Part shown: piece after piece, positions 3,704 through 14,116 of the stretch | Numbering within the stretch: position 1 is the stretch's first letter | Layout: every line of letters starts with the position of its first letter | Assembly: GCA_027340875.1 (NCBI GenBank) | Contig: DAIENX010000021.1 | Coordinates: forward strand, 1 to 15,022 | Length of the DNA: 15,022 bases | Direction: 5' to 3' | Origin: Elusimicrobiota bacterium | GTDB lineage: Bacteria; Elusimicrobiota; Elusimicrobia; Elusimicrobiales; UBA9959 | Notes under the pieces: generated by a model | The model's input: the letters and a program-made list of their open reading frames with translations, nothing else | Told to the model about the DNA's origin: nothing | The model's database searches: none | Position numbers and translations under genes: made by a program

Positions 3704-3732
3704 ATAATATATGCATGAACTCCAAGTGTCGA
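3704..3732 (-). promoter_or_regulatory. Sigma70-type promoter pointing toward rplU (upstream promoter)
   Basis: TCGACA (3732-3727), 17 nt, TATTAT (3709-3704); both boxes are 5/6 matches to consensus. Confidence 0.6.
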
Positions 3733-3743
3733 GCGAACATTCT

Positions 3744-4139
3744 ATGAAACTTCTCCGATACCTGCCTGCCGCCTTCCTGACCGTATTGGCGCTGCCGCTC
3801 TTCGCCGCGGCCGCCCTGCCCGAGGCCAAGCCGTCCCGGCAGATACTCTCCGGGCTTTCCCAGCCGGCCACCTCGCAGGCCCTGATCACGCAGGCCGTGG
3901 ATTTCGACGCCCTCAGCGTCACCGACCCGCTTTACCGGGAGGGCTCGCTCCGCCTGCTTGAACAGGAAGTAAAGAACGACGCCGAAATGAAGAAGGCACC
4001 GGCCGATATGCGCGACGCCCCGGTCTCCAGGAAGAGGACCGGAGCAGCGCCGGCTCCCGGCAAGGACGTACGTCTCAAGAAGACCAGGGTGAAGAAGCCC
4101 GTGCACGCCGATCCCCTCAAGGAAAAGAAGGCGCTCTGA
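3744..4139 (+). CDS. Hypothetical secreted protein with Lys/Arg/Pro-rich tail
   Basis: MKLLRYLPAAFLTVLALPLFAAA is a Sec signal-like segment; GC3-rich codons; followed by a terminator. In-frame ATG at 3711 is an alternative start. Confidence 0.72.
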   Translation: MKLLRYLPAAFLTVLALPLFAAAALPEAKPSRQILSGLSQPATSQALITQAVDFDALSVTDPLYREGSLRLLEQEVKNDAEMKKAPADMRDAPVSRKRTGAAPAPGKDVRLKKTRVKKPVHADPLKEKKAL

Positions 4140-4990: not shown

Positions 4991-5043
4991 TCCAGCCGCG
5001 CCGCCGTGAAATTTTCAGAATAAAGTGCGAGGATGTGTCGCCG

Positions 5044-5652
5044 ATGGCTTGCGTCCTGAGAACGTCCGTCATCCTGCCCGTCTGCCTGTGCCTCTCCGCC
5101 TGTTCCGCGTCGGTCCCCATGCGGGTGGCCAGGATAAACGGGGAATTGTTCTTCGTGCTGGAGGGGAAGCCGCAGGTGGAGAGCGTGACGGTGGAGCGCG
5201 ACGCGACTCCCTGGAGCCCCGCCGAAAAAATGTGGCTTGCCGGATGTTCTGCTCCTGACGTCCCCGCGGCCCGGTCTTCGGGCGCCAAGGCCGCCCCGGC
5301 CGGCTACAAGTGCAGCGTTCACCAGATAAAGTACGGTGAAGGCGGGGAGTACCTGCCCTCGCTGAGTTTCCCTCGGTCCCTGACCAGGGGACTGAGTTAT
5401 ACCGTGCGCGTGGAGCTGGCCGGTCCCGCTGCCGCGGAGAGTTCCTTCATGCTGGAGGGAGATAACAGTATTTCGGTGACGGGAAGCGCCGTGGCCGCCT
5501 CCCATATAAAGGGCGTGACGCTGGAAACATCCTCGGGGGAGCTGTTCTACCCGTATGAGGTAAGCGTCGCCAGCGAAGCCGGGCGCGTCGTCCTGACCGC
5601 CGGCTCCCCCAGGACGGTCGTCCCCGCCAGGAAGAAGCCCGTCTCTTATTGA
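5044..5652 (+). CDS. Hypothetical lipoprotein, probably beta-rich
   Basis: Hydrophobic N-terminus with lipobox LSAC; fills the gap before a bidirectional terminator. Start is ATG 5044 or GTG 5035. Confidence 0.65.
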   Translation: MACVLRTSVILPVCLCLSACSASVPMRVARINGELFFVLEGKPQVESVTVERDATPWSPAEKMWLAGCSAPDVPAARSSGAKAAPAGYKCSVHQIKYGEGGEYLPSLSFPRSLTRGLSYTVRVELAGPAAAESSFMLEGDNSISVTGSAVAASHIKGVTLETSSGELFYPYEVSVASEAGRVVLTAGSPRTVVPARKKPVSY

Positions 5653-9877: not shown

Positions 9878-9907
9878 ATTTTATTATTTTATAGGGGGGG
9901 AGGGCAA
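9878..9907 (-). promoter_or_regulatory. Sigma70-type promoter of hinT (near-leaderless)
   Basis: TTGCCC (9907-9902), 18 nt, TAAAAT (9883-9878), 8 nt, ATG. Confidence 0.65.
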
Positions 9908-9915
9908 ATCTGCGG

Positions 9916-10503
9916 TCAGAAGCGGGACAACGGGAGCACTCGCTCCCCGAACTTGCCGGGGGTGCTTTCCAGCGGGTTGACCGACTTCCTGCTCCTGGTT
10001 ATCCGCAGGGGCCAGACGCCGGCTTTTCTGGCTTGTATGATGCCGGAATCGGAGGGGGAGGCGTAAAGGATGAATCTGCCCTTCTCAAGGGCGCGGTATT
10101 TGTCGTCCTCGCTGGAGGTGAAGCGGAACTCGTCGGCCAGCTTTCTCCAGGAGGCCTCCAGGCTGTCGGCCCCCTCCGGGCCCCGGTCCAGGAAGAGCGT
10201 TACCTTAACCCCCAGGGAGCGCAATAGCCAGGCCGTCAGCCAGGGCACCGGCTTGAGGCGCTCGAAGACGAACGAACGGTTGACCGAGTTCCAGTAGTCC
10301 GGACTCCCCGGCTGCAGCTTGTCCTTGGCCGCCGTCTGGAAGGCCGGGGTGGAATAGACCAGCCCGTCGTCGTATTCGAAGCCGGCGCGGAAGCCTATCA
10401 GCGTGTTTACGCTGAAGATGATGCCCCAGGCGCCGGCCAGCATGGCGAACGCGCGGAACCTTCCGAACCATCTGGCGAAGAAGTCCCGGAGGGCCTGGAA
10501 CAT
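9916..10503 (-). CDS. Class B acid phosphatase (AphA, HAD)-like protein with N-terminal membrane anchor; catalytic residues degenerate
   Basis: GFEYDDGLVYSTPAF aligns to AphA GFDIDDTVLFSSPGF. The C-terminus LYASPSDSGIIQARKAGVWPLRITRSRKS....PGKFGERVL..S.F aligns to [28 protein letters not shown]....AGAFGEEVI..S.Y. TGATG overlap with the upstream gene. Confidence 0.8.
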   Translation of the reverse strand: MFQALRDFFARWFGRFRAFAMLAGAWGIIFSVNTLIGFRAGFEYDDGLVYSTPAFQTAAKDKLQPGSPDYWNSVNRSFVFERLKPVPWLTAWLLRSLGVKVTLFLDRGPEGADSLEASWRKLADEFRFTSSEDDKYRALEKGRFILYASPSDSGIIQARKAGVWPLRITRSRKSVNPLESTPGKFGERVLPLSRF

Positions 10504-11951
10504 CAGTCCGCCGTTGCCCTAACGAGCCTGCCGCCGGCGGGCGGGCCGGTCACGCCCTGGCGCGCCAGGCACCAGCGTACGGCGTCCCGCACGCGGTGCT
10601 TAGAGTTCGCGAACTCCATCGCGCTCGAGAGCACCGGGTTGTCCCTGCCGCTGGCCAGCGAATCCGGGACTGCCAGATGGTATACCCTGCCCGGCACCAG
10701 GGGGCCGTTCTCGCCCTCGGTCTTCTCCAGAGCCTGGCCTCTGAGGTAAAGCTTCAGGCCGGAGACCGTTATGCCGTAGGGATGCAGGCCGTCGAGCGCC
10801 CGTTCCAGGTCCTCTCCGCGGATCTTGACGAAGACCAGGCTGGATTCGCGGGGGAAGGAGGAATAGAGGTGCCCGAGCGTGACCGGTCCGCTGGAGAGAG
10901 GGGCGGCCACCTCGTCGATGCCGATGATGGCGGCGTTGGTCCTGGCCCAGCGCCGCATGCAGTCGGCGGTGAAATCCGCGGCCGGATAGTCCCCGCCGGC
11001 CTGCAGCGGAAGAGGGGCGGAAAGGAAACCTATCTTCTTGCTGAAATGGGTCGCCGCCGCTTTGCGGTGCCTTTCCACGACCGTGAGCACGGCCGGAGAT
11101 TCGCCCAGCTTCGCGACGTCCAGCTCCACTTTCTTCAGCTTGACGTCAGTGACGCGGCCCGTGTCCGGATCGAGGTAGAGGGTTATCCTGGCGGCGTCCT
11201 TCATCCCGTGCCCGGCCCCGGCTATCCAGGCGCGCTTGACCTTGAACGGCTTTTTGATCGAGGGGTCGTCGGTGATGACCAGGTCGACCCTGGGCAGCTT
11301 GGAAAGGAATGTGCGGAAGTACTCCTGCCCGGCCGGGGCTGCGGGATTTATGTCCAGCAGCATTACTATTATCTGGGCGCCGGCTTCACGGAGAGAGTGT
11401 ATGGCCCTCTCCGCCTCGTAAGTTTCCTTCTCGAGCTTGTAGTTAGGGAGGTATTTCCGGGAGTTGGGCTTTTCCGGGGAATTTATCAGCAGTGAGAAGA
11501 AGCCCACCTTCCTGCCCCCGGCCTCTGAGACGCTCCAGCTCCTGAGGAAGTCCGGTTTGCGGTCGCTGCGGAGGTAGAGGTTGGACGCCAGCAGCGGGAT
11601 GGAGGCGGCTTCGGCGAGCCGCTCGAGCTCGTCGGGCGAGAGCGCCAGCTCTTCCATGCCGATGGCCGCGGCCGAATAGGGCACGGCGGCCGCGCATTCC
11701 GCCGCGGCCGTGCCGCCGGTCAGCCGGCCCTCCGGGGTGGCCGAGATCCAGTTCCCCAGGTCAACCGCCAGCTTCGGCTTCCGCTCCGAATCGTAAAGGT
11801 TCTTGAAGGCGGCGAAGCCGCCTCTGCCGTCCTCGGACCACAGCCGGCCCTGGGACCTGGCCGTGGCGAAGACCACCAGCTGCTCCTTCCTGCCGCAGCC
11901 GGCCAGCAGCAGGGCGGCCAGCAGCGCGGCGGGGATCGCTAATCGAGGCGT
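10503..11951 (-). CDS. 5'-nucleotidase-fold lipoprotein, catalytically degenerate; probable ACG start (482 aa)
   Basis: Colinear with the upstream paralogue (GGFAA, DLGN....TPEG, P.L..N.Y, AD.MRR, GE.L, VSGLK, GGR.VR). An in-frame lipoprotein signal (T)PRLAIPAALLAALLLAGC lies upstream of the GTG at 11876. The gene call is firm; the start is less certain. Confidence 0.82.
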   Translation of the reverse strand, partial: TPRLAIPAALLAALLLAGCGRKEQLVVFATARSQGRLWSEDGRGGFAAFKNLYDSERKPKLAVDLGNWISATPEGRLTGGTAAAECAAAVPYSAAAIGMEELALSPDELERLAEAASIPLLASNLYLRSDRKPDFLRSWSVSEAGGRKVGFFSLLINSPEKPNSRKYLPNYKLEKETYEAERAIHSLREAGAQIIVMLLDINPAAPAGQEYFRTFLSKLPRVDLVITDDPSIKKPFKVKRAWIAGAGHGMKDAARITLYLDPDTGRVTDVKLKKVELDVAKLGESPAVLTVVERHRKAAATHFSKKIGFLSAPLPLQAGGDYPAADFTADCMRRWARTNAAIIGIDEVAAPLSSGPVTLGHLYSSFPRESSLVFVKIRGEDLERALDGLHPYGITVSGLKLYLRGQALEKTEGENGPLVPGRVYHLAVPDSLASGRDNPVLSSAMEFANSKHRVRDAVRWCLARQGVTGPPAGGRLVRATAD

Positions 11952-13486
11952 ACTATCCTCCCTCCTTCGGGGCGGGACTTTATCGGATTGGACATGATGT
12001 CCTTGATCAGAAGGTCGCGTATCGGCAGCATCGTGTCTGCGGCGTTCTTGTCCTCCGAGAAGACCGCGCCGCCCGTTCCCCCGGTGGTGAGATAGTTGTT
12101 GGTGGCGACCTTGAACCTCTCGCCGTCCCCCACCGGCTTTCCGTCGCGCTCCAGCGTGATGTTGGCCGGATCGTCGGAGGGGGACCTGAAGGTCACTTTC
12201 AGTCCTGAGACCTGCAGCTTGGAAAATCCGCCGGGCAGGTTGGCCGCCATCAGGCGGCGCAGCTGCTCTCCGGTAAGCGTCAGCGTCACCAGCGTGTTCT
12301 CGAAAGGCATGACCTGGAAGATGTCGCGCATGCGGATGTCCCCTGCCTTCAGGTCGGAACGTATGCCGGGGGTGTTCTGGAACGCGACGTCCGCGCCGGA
12401 CTGCCTGCGCATCGCGTCGGTGAACCAGTTGCCTATGTCCGAGTCGAGGCCGGAGCGAGAGGAGCCCAGGTCCACTTCGGAGCGGCCTATCACCTTGCCC
12501 ATCTCCTTGTCCACCTTGGCGCTGAAGCCTTTAAGCGTCTGGACGACCTTCTGGTCCTCGCCGGTGACGTCGGTCCAGAGCGGGAGCAGCTCGTCGGAGT
12601 CCCCGGTCAGCTTGCCGGTCTTGTCGTCGAAGTTCAGCGAGATCCTGCTGACGTCTGTGAGTCCCCAGTAGCTTTCCGCTATCAGCGCGCCGCTGACCGG
12701 GTCGCGGTAGCCGCGCGTTATGCCGGCGTGGTTGTGGCCGCCTATCACCACGTCCGCTCCGGACGCCCGGGCTATCGCGAGCGTGCTGTCCGGCGGGATC
12801 TCGCCGTCATACGTCTTGCCGGTGAGGTCCTTTTTCCCGGAGAGGCCCAGGCCGAAGCCGGTATGGGAAAGCACTACGAGCGCGTCGGGTTTCTCGTTCT
12901 CGCGGATGATCCTGGCCCAGCGGGCGGCTTCCTGGCTCTCGTCCCGGAACTCCAGGTGCTTCACGTTGACCGGGAGCGTGGAGGTGGCGGTATGCTTGCC
13001 GGCTATGCCCAGCACCGCGATGCGTTTGCCCGCTACCGTGACCACCGTGTACGGCTTCAGGTAATCCGGGGCTTTTCCGGTCTCCTTCACGTAGACGTTC
13101 GCGCCCAGCCAGGGGAAGCTGGAGGCCTTTACCATGGTCCTGAGGCTGTCCTCGGTGTAGTCGTAGTCGTGGTTCCCGATGTCGCAGGCGGAGTAGCCGA
13201 GCTGGTTCATCATCGCGGCCGTCGCCATGCCCTTGGTAAGGGTCCCTTCCGGGGTGCCCTGGAAGGTGTCGCCGGAATCGAGCAGGATGTGCGGATTCTT
13301 GTCCGCGCTGACCAGCGCCGAGAGCGCCGCGAAGCCGCCGATGGTGCGGGTAGAATTCTCCTTGTCCCATTTGGCGGGGCGGGAGTAGTACCAGCCGTGC
13401 GCGTCGCTGGTGTGATAGATGTCCACGGTCAGCGACCACGCGGAGAGGGGCAGGGCGAGAAGCAGGGCGGTCAGCAGCTTTTTCAT
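11939..13486 (-). CDS. Secreted bifunctional metallophosphatase / 5'-nucleotidase (UshA-like), catalytically intact
   Basis: Signal peptide. Motifs HTSDAHG, DSGDTFQG, GNHDYD, LSH, GGHNH; C-domain N.PGIR, PFEN, ATNNYL. SD GGAG overlaps the upstream stop. Confidence 0.95.
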   Translation of the reverse strand: MKKLLTALLLALPLSAWSLTVDIYHTSDAHGWYYSRPAKWDKENSTRTIGGFAALSALVSADKNPHILLDSGDTFQGTPEGTLTKGMATAAMMNQLGYSACDIGNHDYDYTEDSLRTMVKASSFPWLGANVYVKETGKAPDYLKPYTVVTVAGKRIAVLGIAGKHTATSTLPVNVKHLEFRDESQEAARWARIIRENEKPDALVVLSHTGFGLGLSGKKDLTGKTYDGEIPPDSTLAIARASGADVVIGGHNHAGITRGYRDPVSGALIAESYWGLTDVSRISLNFDDKTGKLTGDSDELLPLWTDVTGEDQKVVQTLKGFSAKVDKEMGKVIGRSEVDLGSSRSGLDSDIGNWFTDAMRRQSGADVAFQNTPGIRSDLKAGDIRMRDIFQVMPFENTLVTLTLTGEQLRRLMAANLPGGFSKLQVSGLKVTFRSPSDDPANITLERDGKPVGDGERFKVATNNYLTTGGTGGAVFSEDKNAADTMLPIRDLLIKDIMSNPIKSRPEGGRIVRLD

Positions 13487-13495
13487 CAGGGGCTC

Positions 13496-14035
13496 CTAGA
13501 TAAGGTAAAGGGATCCGGCGCAGCGCTCCAGGGCTTCGAAGACGGAGTCGAGTCCGGAGTATATGCTACTAAATTTGAGATTTAGCGGGAAACTCGAGGG
13601 GGAACCGGCGGCCGCCGCGGCGGAAAGGGCCAGGGAGAGGGCCTTGCGGCCGGTGGCGCAGTGCGCCAGCAGCTCGGCCGAGGCGGCGGCCCTGCCGGAG
13701 CGCGAGAGCAGGCGGGGGGTCAGGGAGCAGGCCCGCTGCAGGTGCAGCAGGGCTTCCCGGCTGGGAGAGTCAGGACGGACCTGCAGCAGCGCCATGTCGG
13801 AAAAGGTCTTCTCCAGCCTGGCGGCGAAGTCGTCGGCGGCGGCCAGCGCGCGCCCGGCTTCCTGCGAGGAACCGGCCGCCCGGGCCGAGTCCAGTTCCTT
13901 CCTGAACGGCCGCAGCAGGGTGGGCGCGGCCGCCGGTTCCCTTTCCAGGTCGCCCAGCGCTTCGCCGCAGCCTGTGACGGTCCCGAGCGTGGCGCGCAGC
14001 CGCTTATCGGTGAGTCTAAGCAGGAAACTCCGCAT
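13496..14035 (-). CDS. Divergent DUF47/PhoU-like helical protein
   Basis: LKFSSIYSGLDSVFEALERCA resembles the DUF47 C-terminal IKWKEIYE.LE...D.CEDVA; ALAAADDFAARLEKT...MALLQV resembles L...LDD..D..E......LYKI. Has its own promoter and sits 9 nt from the next gene. Confidence 0.6.
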   Translation of the reverse strand: MRSFLLRLTDKRLRATLGTVTGCGEALGDLEREPAAAPTLLRPFRKELDSARAAGSSQEAGRALAAADDFAARLEKTFSDMALLQVRPDSPSREALLHLQRACSLTPRLLSRSGRAAASAELLAHCATGRKALSLALSAAAAAGSPSSFPLNLKFSSIYSGLDSVFEALERCAGSLYLI

Positions 14036-14042
14036 AATAGCG

Positions 14043-14072
14043 ATGATATTTAATTGCCGCCGTCCCGGTCAA
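14043..14072 (-). promoter_or_regulatory. Sigma70-type promoter of the four-gene operon (leaderless)
   Basis: TTGACC (14072-14067), 18 nt, TATCAT (14048-14043), 7 nt, ATG. Confidence 0.75.
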
Positions 14073-14081
14073 AGGCTGAAG

Positions 14082-14116
14082 AAAAAGCCGGGGGAGGCTT
14101 TGGGCCTCCCCCGGCT
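14082..14116 (-). terminator. Intrinsic terminator after rpsI
   Basis: Minus strand AGCCGGGGGAGGC-ccaaa-GCCTCCCCCGGCT-TTTT. Confidence 0.92.

Follow-up and report, generated by a model that had tools for sequence, protein, structure and literature searches.

A catalytically dead 5'-nucleotidase paralogue, predicted to be a lipoprotein, was found directly downstream of its active counterpart in a four-gene block of an Elusimicrobiota genome (order Elusimicrobiales), and it has been kept under purifying selection across the order. The window, i.e., the whole stretch of DNA analyzed, is an entire contig of 15,022 bases (DAIENX010000021.1; C61 in our numbering) from a genome of 2.8 Mb with 64% GC (G000). 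The block lies on its minus strand and encodes a degenerate DUF47/PhoU-fold protein (g1), a UshA-type 5'-nucleotidase (g2), the ligand-less paralogue of g2 (g3), and an AphA-fold protein (g4) (Table 1). We tentatively propose that g3 acts as a lipid-anchored non-catalytic partner that may tether or tune g2. An earlier sequence-only reading of the window had described four intact open reading frames (ORFs) of these families, and the ORF coordinates and the profile and fold matches agree with it. Relatives were grouped by family: f1 is the family of the window, f2 and f3 belong to the same order, and f6–f9 belong to other orders of the class. From its small genomes (mostly 1.2–1.9 Mb) and passages of bioRxiv 10.1101/765248, we infer that f2 is the gut family Elusimicrobiaceae.

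Table 1. Coordinates of the four genes and of the signals around them in the window.
Feature	Position	Strand	Characteristics
Terminator-like intrinsic hairpin after rpsI, upstream boundary	14086..14116	-	13-pair stem and T tail
Sigma-70-like promoter TTGACC-18-TATCAT	14043..14072	-	10/12 consensus match, joint best in the window
g1, degenerate DUF47/PhoU-fold helical bundle, 179 amino acids	13496..14035	-	no signal peptide seen; Ala-rich, acid-poor
g2, UshA-type 5'-nucleotidase, 515 amino acids	11939..13486	-	predicted cleavable signal peptide; dimetal and substrate sites complete
Candidate non-canonical g3 start inside the g2 end: GGAGG, 5-nucleotide spacer, in-frame ACG	11949..11961	-	arrangement in 7 genomes
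g3, pseudo-5'-nucleotidase lipoprotein (predicted), 482 amino acids	10503..11951	-	LAGC lipobox with Cys19; has both domains but not the ligands
g4, AphA-fold protein (class B-like HAD IIIB), 195 amino acids	9916..10503	-	N-terminal basic helix, then hydrophobic segment 18–36
Promoter-like site of HIT-rpsU, marking the downstream boundary	9878..9907	-	promoter scan

The g3 protein retains the two-domain nucleotidase fold. It shares 24% identity with g2 over 464 amino acids (E 3e-30), matches PF02872 (E 2.3e-12) and the UshA profile (E 2.5e-44), and its Atlas model aligned with predicted nucleotidase models at template modeling (TM) scores of 0.88–0.89 over 442–451 residues. At the eight metal and catalytic positions (DxH, GD, GNH(D/E), H, and GHxH), g3 of the window carries R, Q, N, M, E, D, D, and S, that is, 0/8 are kept. 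Among 53 downstream copies, 26 kept none of these positions, 22 kept one, and five kept two to four; the catalytic Asn-His pair was present in 0/53, and the eight ligand columns vary freely, with the first Asp retained in many f2 copies. The substrate residues, given in UshA numbering, were mostly lost as well: the Arg410-like residue was kept in 8/53 copies (lost in 45/53) and the Phe429-like aromatic in 20/53 (lost in 33/53), which argues against g3 as a plain nucleotide-binding protein.

The g3 protein has invariant positions of its own. Glu446-Phe447 of an EFxN motif was found in 53/53 copies, and Lys50, Trp335, and Arg464 were found in 87–92%. The EFxN motif was aligned with P513-G-Y-V-N of UshA; thus, its Phe and Asn resemble ancestral residues, and its Glu is new. 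The structure 1OID is described in passages of 10.64898/2026.03.29.715126 as open-form UshA with an engineered S228C-P513C bridge. The Cys331/Cys461 pair of g3 is common to the single nucleotidase of other orders. By our pattern rule, a lipobox was present in 45/53 dead copies, 2/58 active copies, and 0/15 outgroup copies (LLLAGC in the window), and its Cys was present in all 39 g3 copies of the first alignment. On these motifs g3 is a predicted lipoprotein, provided that translation begins at an upstream start.

The catalytic motifs are complete only in g2, as had been claimed. Both nucleotidase domains were matched above the Pfam cut-off (PF00149, E 5.5e-10; PF02872, E 1.3e-35), and agreement with solved nucleotidases was E 2e-54 for 3IVD and about 1e-35 for E. 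coli UshA. The score against the UshA equivalog NF007109 was 184 bits, below the cut-off of 600 bits, which places g2 in the same superfamily and not in that equivalog. All eight metal and catalytic positions were kept in 58/58 upstream copies, and so were the R410-like Arg and the F429-like aromatic residue. The two-domain design, with a dimetal center plus a catalytic His in the N-terminal domain and two aromatic residues in the C-terminal domain, is outlined in passages of PMC8071527. Nucleoside-uptake families PF07662 and PF02608 are encoded elsewhere in G000. With an intact secreted enzyme and uptake proteins for nucleosides and phosphate elsewhere in the genome, g2 is most likely a nucleotide scavenger, predicted to free nucleosides and phosphate outside the inner membrane. 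In four loci of the small-genome family f2 (L054, L059, L061, and L065), two active nucleotidase copies stand in tandem ahead of a single dead copy.

In a FastTree phylogeny of 454 columns, the 53 dead copies formed one clade (support 1.0) and the 58 active copies a second (0.92); f2 was set apart from f1+f3 in each of them. By this topology, the nucleotidase was duplicated in the ancestor of the order, and the downstream copy became g3. A frameshift fusion of g2 and g3 was considered and rejected, as g3 carries a signal peptide of its own and, in most relatives, begins with a normal ATG.

The expectation that the cluster would be conserved in relatives was borne out. A match was obtained in 41/41 genomes of a first search, from which 40 loci were fetched (four cut by contig ends), and 251 genomes of the phylum were also drawn, with a best match of E 2e-109 or better taken as g3-level. 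In f2, at least two matches were found in 70/70 genomes and a g3-level best match in 67/70; motifs were read at 14 of its loci, and four further loci were inspected, one of them cut by a contig end. In f1, a g3-level match was found in 14/18 genomes; in three more, g3 was in place but highly diverged, and in one (G200) it was frameshifted near the linker. In every locus read that reaches g3, the gene lies directly 3' of an active copy; a g3 lacking such a copy upstream was not encountered in these loci. The flanking genes were distributed differently. Detection of g4 was 17/18 in f1, 0/70 in f2, and 17/17 in f6–f9, with eight more distant genomes; g1 was found in 57/74 f1 and 0/74 f2 genomes and in 2/2 f3 genomes, whose copies were themselves in the query alignment. 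In f3 and in most f1 genomes, all four genes run in the same direction and are closely coupled. In f2, both flanks of g2+g3 are rearranged, and the pair is still adjacent and coupled. It is g2+g3, and not the full set of four, that makes up the conserved core of the locus.

Selection was measured as the ratio of nonsynonymous to synonymous substitution rates (dN/dS) from Nei-Gojobori counts pooled over independent close pairs (six for g1, seven each for g2–g4, and four each for dnaG and the HIT gene). The pooled values were 0.30 for g1, 0.17 for g2, 0.18 for g3, 0.11 for g4, 0.17 for dnaG, and 0.12 for HIT, and the two domains of g3 gave 0.19 and 0.15. The GC content at third codon positions of the four ORFs was 0.83–0.88; as a high value tends to depress dS in this method, the ratios are likelier too high than too low. 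The ratios of g3 and g4, far below 1 and on par with those of g2, dnaG, and HIT, exclude decay of these two genes. In single close pairs, g1 ranged from 0.16 to 0.57, and it is constrained but relaxed.

The couplings described in the sequence-only reading were recovered for g1-g2 (a 9-nucleotide gap) and g3/g4 (joined by TGATG). The 13-nucleotide overlap of g2 and g3 exists only if g3 starts at 11951, which is an ACG. The first ATG, GTG, or TTG in the g3 frame is a GTG at 11876, 3' of the lipobox. The GGAGG-spacer-ACG arrangement was found in seven genomes of one clade (the window, L031, L033, L034, L037, L039, and L040), one of which also has a TTG four bases ahead of the end of the g2 stop. 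In the remaining 16 f1 genomes inspected, an ATG of g3 lies close to the g2 stop. As the seven genomes form one clade, the ATG was lost in a single event, with the signal peptide retained, and g3 probably begins at the ACG in this clade. Such a start would hide the lipoprotein signal of g3 from standard gene calls, a consequence for annotation; the ESM Atlas record of g3 begins at the GTG, without the signal.

The g4 protein matched the AphA profile from the first beta-strand to the C-terminus (E 3.7e-11), and the ten best Foldseek rows for its model were all AphA (E 1e-10 to 2e-9, TM 0.63–0.70); against TIGR01672 it scored 35 bits, with the cut-off at 196. Motif I is EYDDG in the window versus DIDDT in AphA, with the nucleophile Asp replaced by Glu, and motif IV is SPSDSG, with both aspartates lost. 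The nucleophile position was E in 15/15 f1 rows. Of 120 database homologues, 116 have EYDDG (four fall outside our pattern) and none has GD.D. The named g4 homologues came from Elusimicrobia/Elusimicrobiales. Glu43, Asp45, Asp46, Arg107, and mostly Lys135 are retained. Outside f1, both catalytic motifs were kept in 20/27 homologues, including both f3 genomes, which have g3, and among f8 copies, all without any g3, three have E and two have G at the nucleophile position. Since g4 is intact beside g3 in f3 and dead without g3 in f8, its inactivation postdates the origin of g3 and can be separated from it. Residues 2–36 form one helix in the model; segment 18–36 has a mean hydropathy of 1.75 (median 1.8 in 51 homologues), and a second segment, within the fold, reaches 1.15. 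The hydrophobic helix with its basic N-terminus is consistent with a signal anchor, and g4 is thus predicted to be a strongly conserved membrane-anchored pseudophosphatase in the family of the window. In two f8 genomes (L090:6497-7099 and L092:1991-2593), a degenerate DUF47 gene accompanies an AphA-like gene with GYDTT, with the nucleotidase on another contig; by its motif, GYDTT is a separate route to a dead g4.

For g1, no DUF47 or PhoU match was obtained in Pfam, NCBIfam, or PDB profile searches. PF01865 was matched by 0/23 g1 members at E 0.1, and the ExxxD motif was absent in 17/23; weak matches to Bcl-2, Hsp70, and dynein were put down to chance. The AlphaFold model (mean predicted local distance difference test score, pLDDT, 93.9) aligned with the DUF47-type protein BT4638 (3L39) over 169 residues at Z 17.4 and a root mean square deviation of 2.3. 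PhoU entries took ranks 1–6, followed by ALMT channel domains (13.2–13.7); Foldseek gave the same order, but with E 0.02. A profile–profile comparison of g1 with positional DUF47 orthologues gave E 1e-4. Structure searches thus returned the folds proposed earlier for g1, g3, and g4. Acidic residues make up 8–12% of g1 versus 16–19% in four canonical DUF47 copies. A canonical DUF47 gene lies beside a PiT gene on contig C107 of G000, and no PHO4/PiT gene is next to g1. We conclude that g1 is a drifting DUF47 remnant. The label "dead" given earlier to three of the genes holds for g3 (0/8 ligands) and g4 (catalytic aspartates lost) and fits g1 loosely only, because DUF47/PhoU proteins are not known to be enzymes. 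The predicted locations were recovered for all four proteins (no signal for g1, signal peptide for g2, lipobox for g3, and hydrophobic N-terminal helix for g4).

In other orders, one nucleotidase lies upstream of g4 in 15/17 f6–f9 loci, always with 8/8 positions and without g3. A DUF47 gene precedes it; of eight tested, two scored over the Pfam cut-off, one just under it, and five were degenerate. A PHO4 transporter gene stands ahead of DUF47 in 2/2 f9 loci, and the gene ahead of the AphA-like one in f18 encodes a sodium symporter-family transporter. As other orders hold DUF47, one active nucleotidase, a mostly intact AphA-like gene, and sometimes PiT, the block is an old phosphate/nucleotide-scavenging operon. 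The fullest form seen is PiT-DUF47-5'-nucleotidase-AphA-like, and the parts of the operon degenerated at different times.

After the duplication in the ancestor of the order, one copy kept catalysis, and the g3 copy lost the dimetal site and most substrate residues, gained a predicted lipoprotein anchor, and remained under purifying selection since. According to the mechanism that we propose, g3 would hold the otherwise soluble g2 at a membrane and perhaps tune the domain rotation of g2. Glu446-Phe447 of g3 adjoins the equivalent of UshA Pro513, an inter-domain contact in the open form, and g3 may therefore be fixed in one conformation as a rigid scaffold. In this mechanism g4 and g1 would be accessory, being undetected in the small-genome family and having degenerated separately. 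We are nearly evenly divided on whether g3 is such a partner of g2, and several observations weigh against it. Tandem duplicates are neighbors by origin, so adjacency alone is no proof of g2–g3 binding. Branch-rate covariation of g2 and g3 was weak (rho 0.20–0.24 in 36 genomes and 0.14 in 17 genomes). In L076, L077, L079, and L080, g3 diverged strongly while g2 did not; four f2 loci carry two active copies per g3; and g3 is split by the frameshift in G200. No fusion of an active module with a dead g3-type module was found among the 150 best representatives, in which multi-module nucleotidases were mostly active+active, with few dead+dead or mixed. The main rival, which we consider somewhat unlikely, is that g3 is a useful or essential envelope lipoprotein independent of g2, a scaffold or a binder of another protein or ligand, whose adjacency reflects tandem origin and a convenient promoter. 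The weak covariation, the invariant residues proper to g3, its retention where g1 and g4 were not found, and the occurrence of ligand-less UshA-like proteins in Caldisericia and Clostridium celatum would all fit such a role; however, g2 and g3 are still adjacent and coupled in three families despite the rearranged flanks in f2, and g3 was never seen without an active copy upstream in the loci read.

A cryptic activity or ligand sensing at rewired sites in g3, g4, or both (such as a Glu nucleophile in g4, or binding of phosphate with no turnover) would explain the residues that g4 retains, its near-universal EYDDG, its dN/dS, the lowest of the four genes, and the first Asp of many f2 g3 copies. 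We judge it unlikely, as g4 lacks the motif-IV aspartates in the window and GD.D in 120/120 homologues, and 48/53 g3 copies keep at most one of eight positions in freely varying columns. The complex put forward in the sequence-only reading, taken here as a single assembly of g1–g4 across the envelope through which the state of periplasmic nucleotides or phosphate would be signaled to the cytoplasm via the g4 anchor and g1, draws on the co-orientation and tight coupling in most f1 genomes and f3, on purifying selection on all four genes, and on the cytoplasm-facing basic helix of g4. As the unit it is not supported: f2 keeps g2+g3 with neither g1 nor g4 detected, and g1 was undetected in 17/74 f1 genomes. 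Moreover, degeneration occurred at different nodes, with g4 motifs intact in most homologues outside f1, including f3 with its g3, and an acid-poor DUF47 with an E-substituted g4 also occurring in an order without g3. A g3-g4 rate signal of 0.51–0.56 (two controls, 36 genomes) was not specific and was not used as support; with six more control genes (17 genomes) it fell to 0.36, under g3-dnaG (0.71) and g3-mscS (0.55). We therefore hold the relay to be distinctly improbable. An elaborated form of our proposal, which we hold just as improbable, is a two-subunit nucleotidase in which lipid-anchored dead g3, fixed by EFxN, tethers and allosterically controls g2 and, in free-living members, docks on g4 and g1 as a trans-envelope scavenging and sensing assembly, with the subunit ratio partly set by the ACG start. 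That the genes are redundant and slowly decaying as selection is relaxed, the alternative raised alongside the complex, is very improbable for the block. It has in its favor the variable dN/dS of g1 and its broken copies in two genomes (three pieces in G007 and a lost stop in G080), the g3 frameshift in G200, and the lost g3 ATG in the clade of the window. It fails for g3 and g4, which are as constrained as g2, dnaG, and HIT; g3 is full-length across three families, and its lipobox outlived the loss of the ATG. Decay is plausible for g1 only.

Pseudoenzyme partners are of a known kind, and dead calcineurin-like phosphoesterases such as Vps29 and the DNA polymerase B subunits serve as scaffolds. 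As proposed for g3, selection there retains a dead paralogue that serves in binding or as a scaffold; those proteins are eukaryotic or archaeal and intracellular, whereas g3 is predicted to be a lipoprotein of the bacterial envelope, is encoded next to its active paralogue, and has a proposed partner. Compared with UshA-type nucleotidases (E. coli UshA 1USH/1HP1, E. coli nucleotidase 3IVD, T. thermophilus 2Z1A, and human CD73), g2 agrees in its domains and in its catalytic and substrate motifs. The two-domain fold is present in g3 from end to end, but g3 is without the dimetal center, the catalytic His, and the larger part of the specificity site. The g4 protein shares the fold of AphA (HAD IIIB), a soluble periplasmic homotetramer, in an end-to-end alignment, and differs in having a putatively uncleaved hydrophobic helix in place of the signal peptide and N-terminal arm and, in f1, Glu at the nucleophile position and no motif IV aspartates, both motifs being intact in most other lineages read. 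The g1 protein has the same helical bundle as DUF47 (PhoU_div) of pit operons, such as BT4638 (3L39), and its positional orthologues are Pfam DUF47; it is shorter (179 amino acids), has fewer acids, and adjoins no transporter gene. In known lipoprotein nucleotidases of Vibrio, as far as passages of PMC8475336 describe them, anchor and activity are on one chain, whereas the anchor of g3 is separate, in tandem with soluble g2. Excerpts from the same source report that UshA and AphA together support E. coli growth on purine nucleotides, and excerpts from PMC10694654 that in H. influenzae there is overlap among NadN, Hel, and AphA; both describe periplasmic UshA- and AphA-type enzymes as releasing nucleosides and phosphate from nucleotides that the cell is unable to import.

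No description of this operon or of the g3 family was found in the literature searched, in which subscription papers were thinly covered and the family tables of bioRxiv 10.1101/765248 may list them. A table row in an ushA survey (PMC10454023) marks Elusimicrobiota negative, under a column header that lay outside the part available. The g3 pseudoenzyme is solid and apparently undescribed. Retention of a dead, predicted lipoprotein under selection across the order, even through genome streamlining, suggests that the UshA fold has been put to a non-catalytic use in the cell envelope. Bacterial 5'-nucleotidases are regarded as single-chain enzymes, and g3-like proteins are annotated as nucleotidases in databases; g2+g3 would offer a simple two-protein system for studying tethering or regulation. 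The locus also records the stepwise turn of three operon members to non-catalytic or ligand-poor forms, with intact relatives as controls.

For the rpsI terminator and the promoter reported earlier, a terminator-like hairpin and the promoter sequence were both located ahead of g1 (Table 1). The block is flanked by rplM-rpsI and HIT-rpsU-dnaG-rpoD, where the rpl/rps, dnaG, and rpoD genes are what we take the neighbors to be from their sequences. A comparable hairpin follows rpsI in most genus relatives. The window contains eight promoter-like sites versus 2.3 in shuffled sequence, and the -10 box of the promoter ends 7 nucleotides ahead of the g1 ATG. A TAnnnT box 5–12 nucleotides 5' of the g1 start was present in 17/21 genomes (in the window, region 14035-14048, minus strand), and by our own rule a Shine-Dalgarno sequence precedes g1 in 1/21. 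The promoter is thus probably real, and the g1 transcript is probably leaderless or nearly so. A scan of the window gave no terminator-like site in the stretch from g4 to the HIT gene; the g1–g4 transcript may therefore extend further.

Several loci of relatives departed from the common pattern. In f9 (L096:2535-3338, minus strand; L097:5690-6490, plus strand), a 266-amino-acid protein with an N-terminal hydrophobic segment occupies the g3 position between the nucleotidase and the AphA-like gene; the one copy scanned had no Pfam match, and the protein may be an analogous anchor. In the four f1 genomes with an extremely diverged g3 and an ordinary g2 (1.4–2.1 Mb), g1 was undetected in three. 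Single-genome breaks were the g3 frameshift in G200 (L132:3224-4706), an in-frame run of g1 into g2 in G080 (L072:902-3256), and g1 in three pieces in G007 (G007:C88:27537-28208), and these may be assembly errors; the run in G080 was rejected as fusion evidence, as loss of a stop in a single genome seems to account for it. In other orders (L081, L083, L086, L089, L093, L094, and L096), g4 is followed by what we take to be triosephosphate isomerase-like, PduL-like, and microcompartment shell-like genes. Ligand-less UshA-like proteins recur across phyla (P0170, P0195, P0200, P0246, P0263, P0163, and P0190), and dead double-module forms occur in Caldisericia, with S-layer domains, and in Clostridium celatum. 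Elsewhere in the window, on the plus strand, a squalene/phytoene synthase-family gene overlaps an OmpA-domain lipoprotein gene (25-1490), and two secreted-looking ORFs of 142 and 205 amino acids (3711-4139 and 5035-5652) had no Pfam match over the cut-off.

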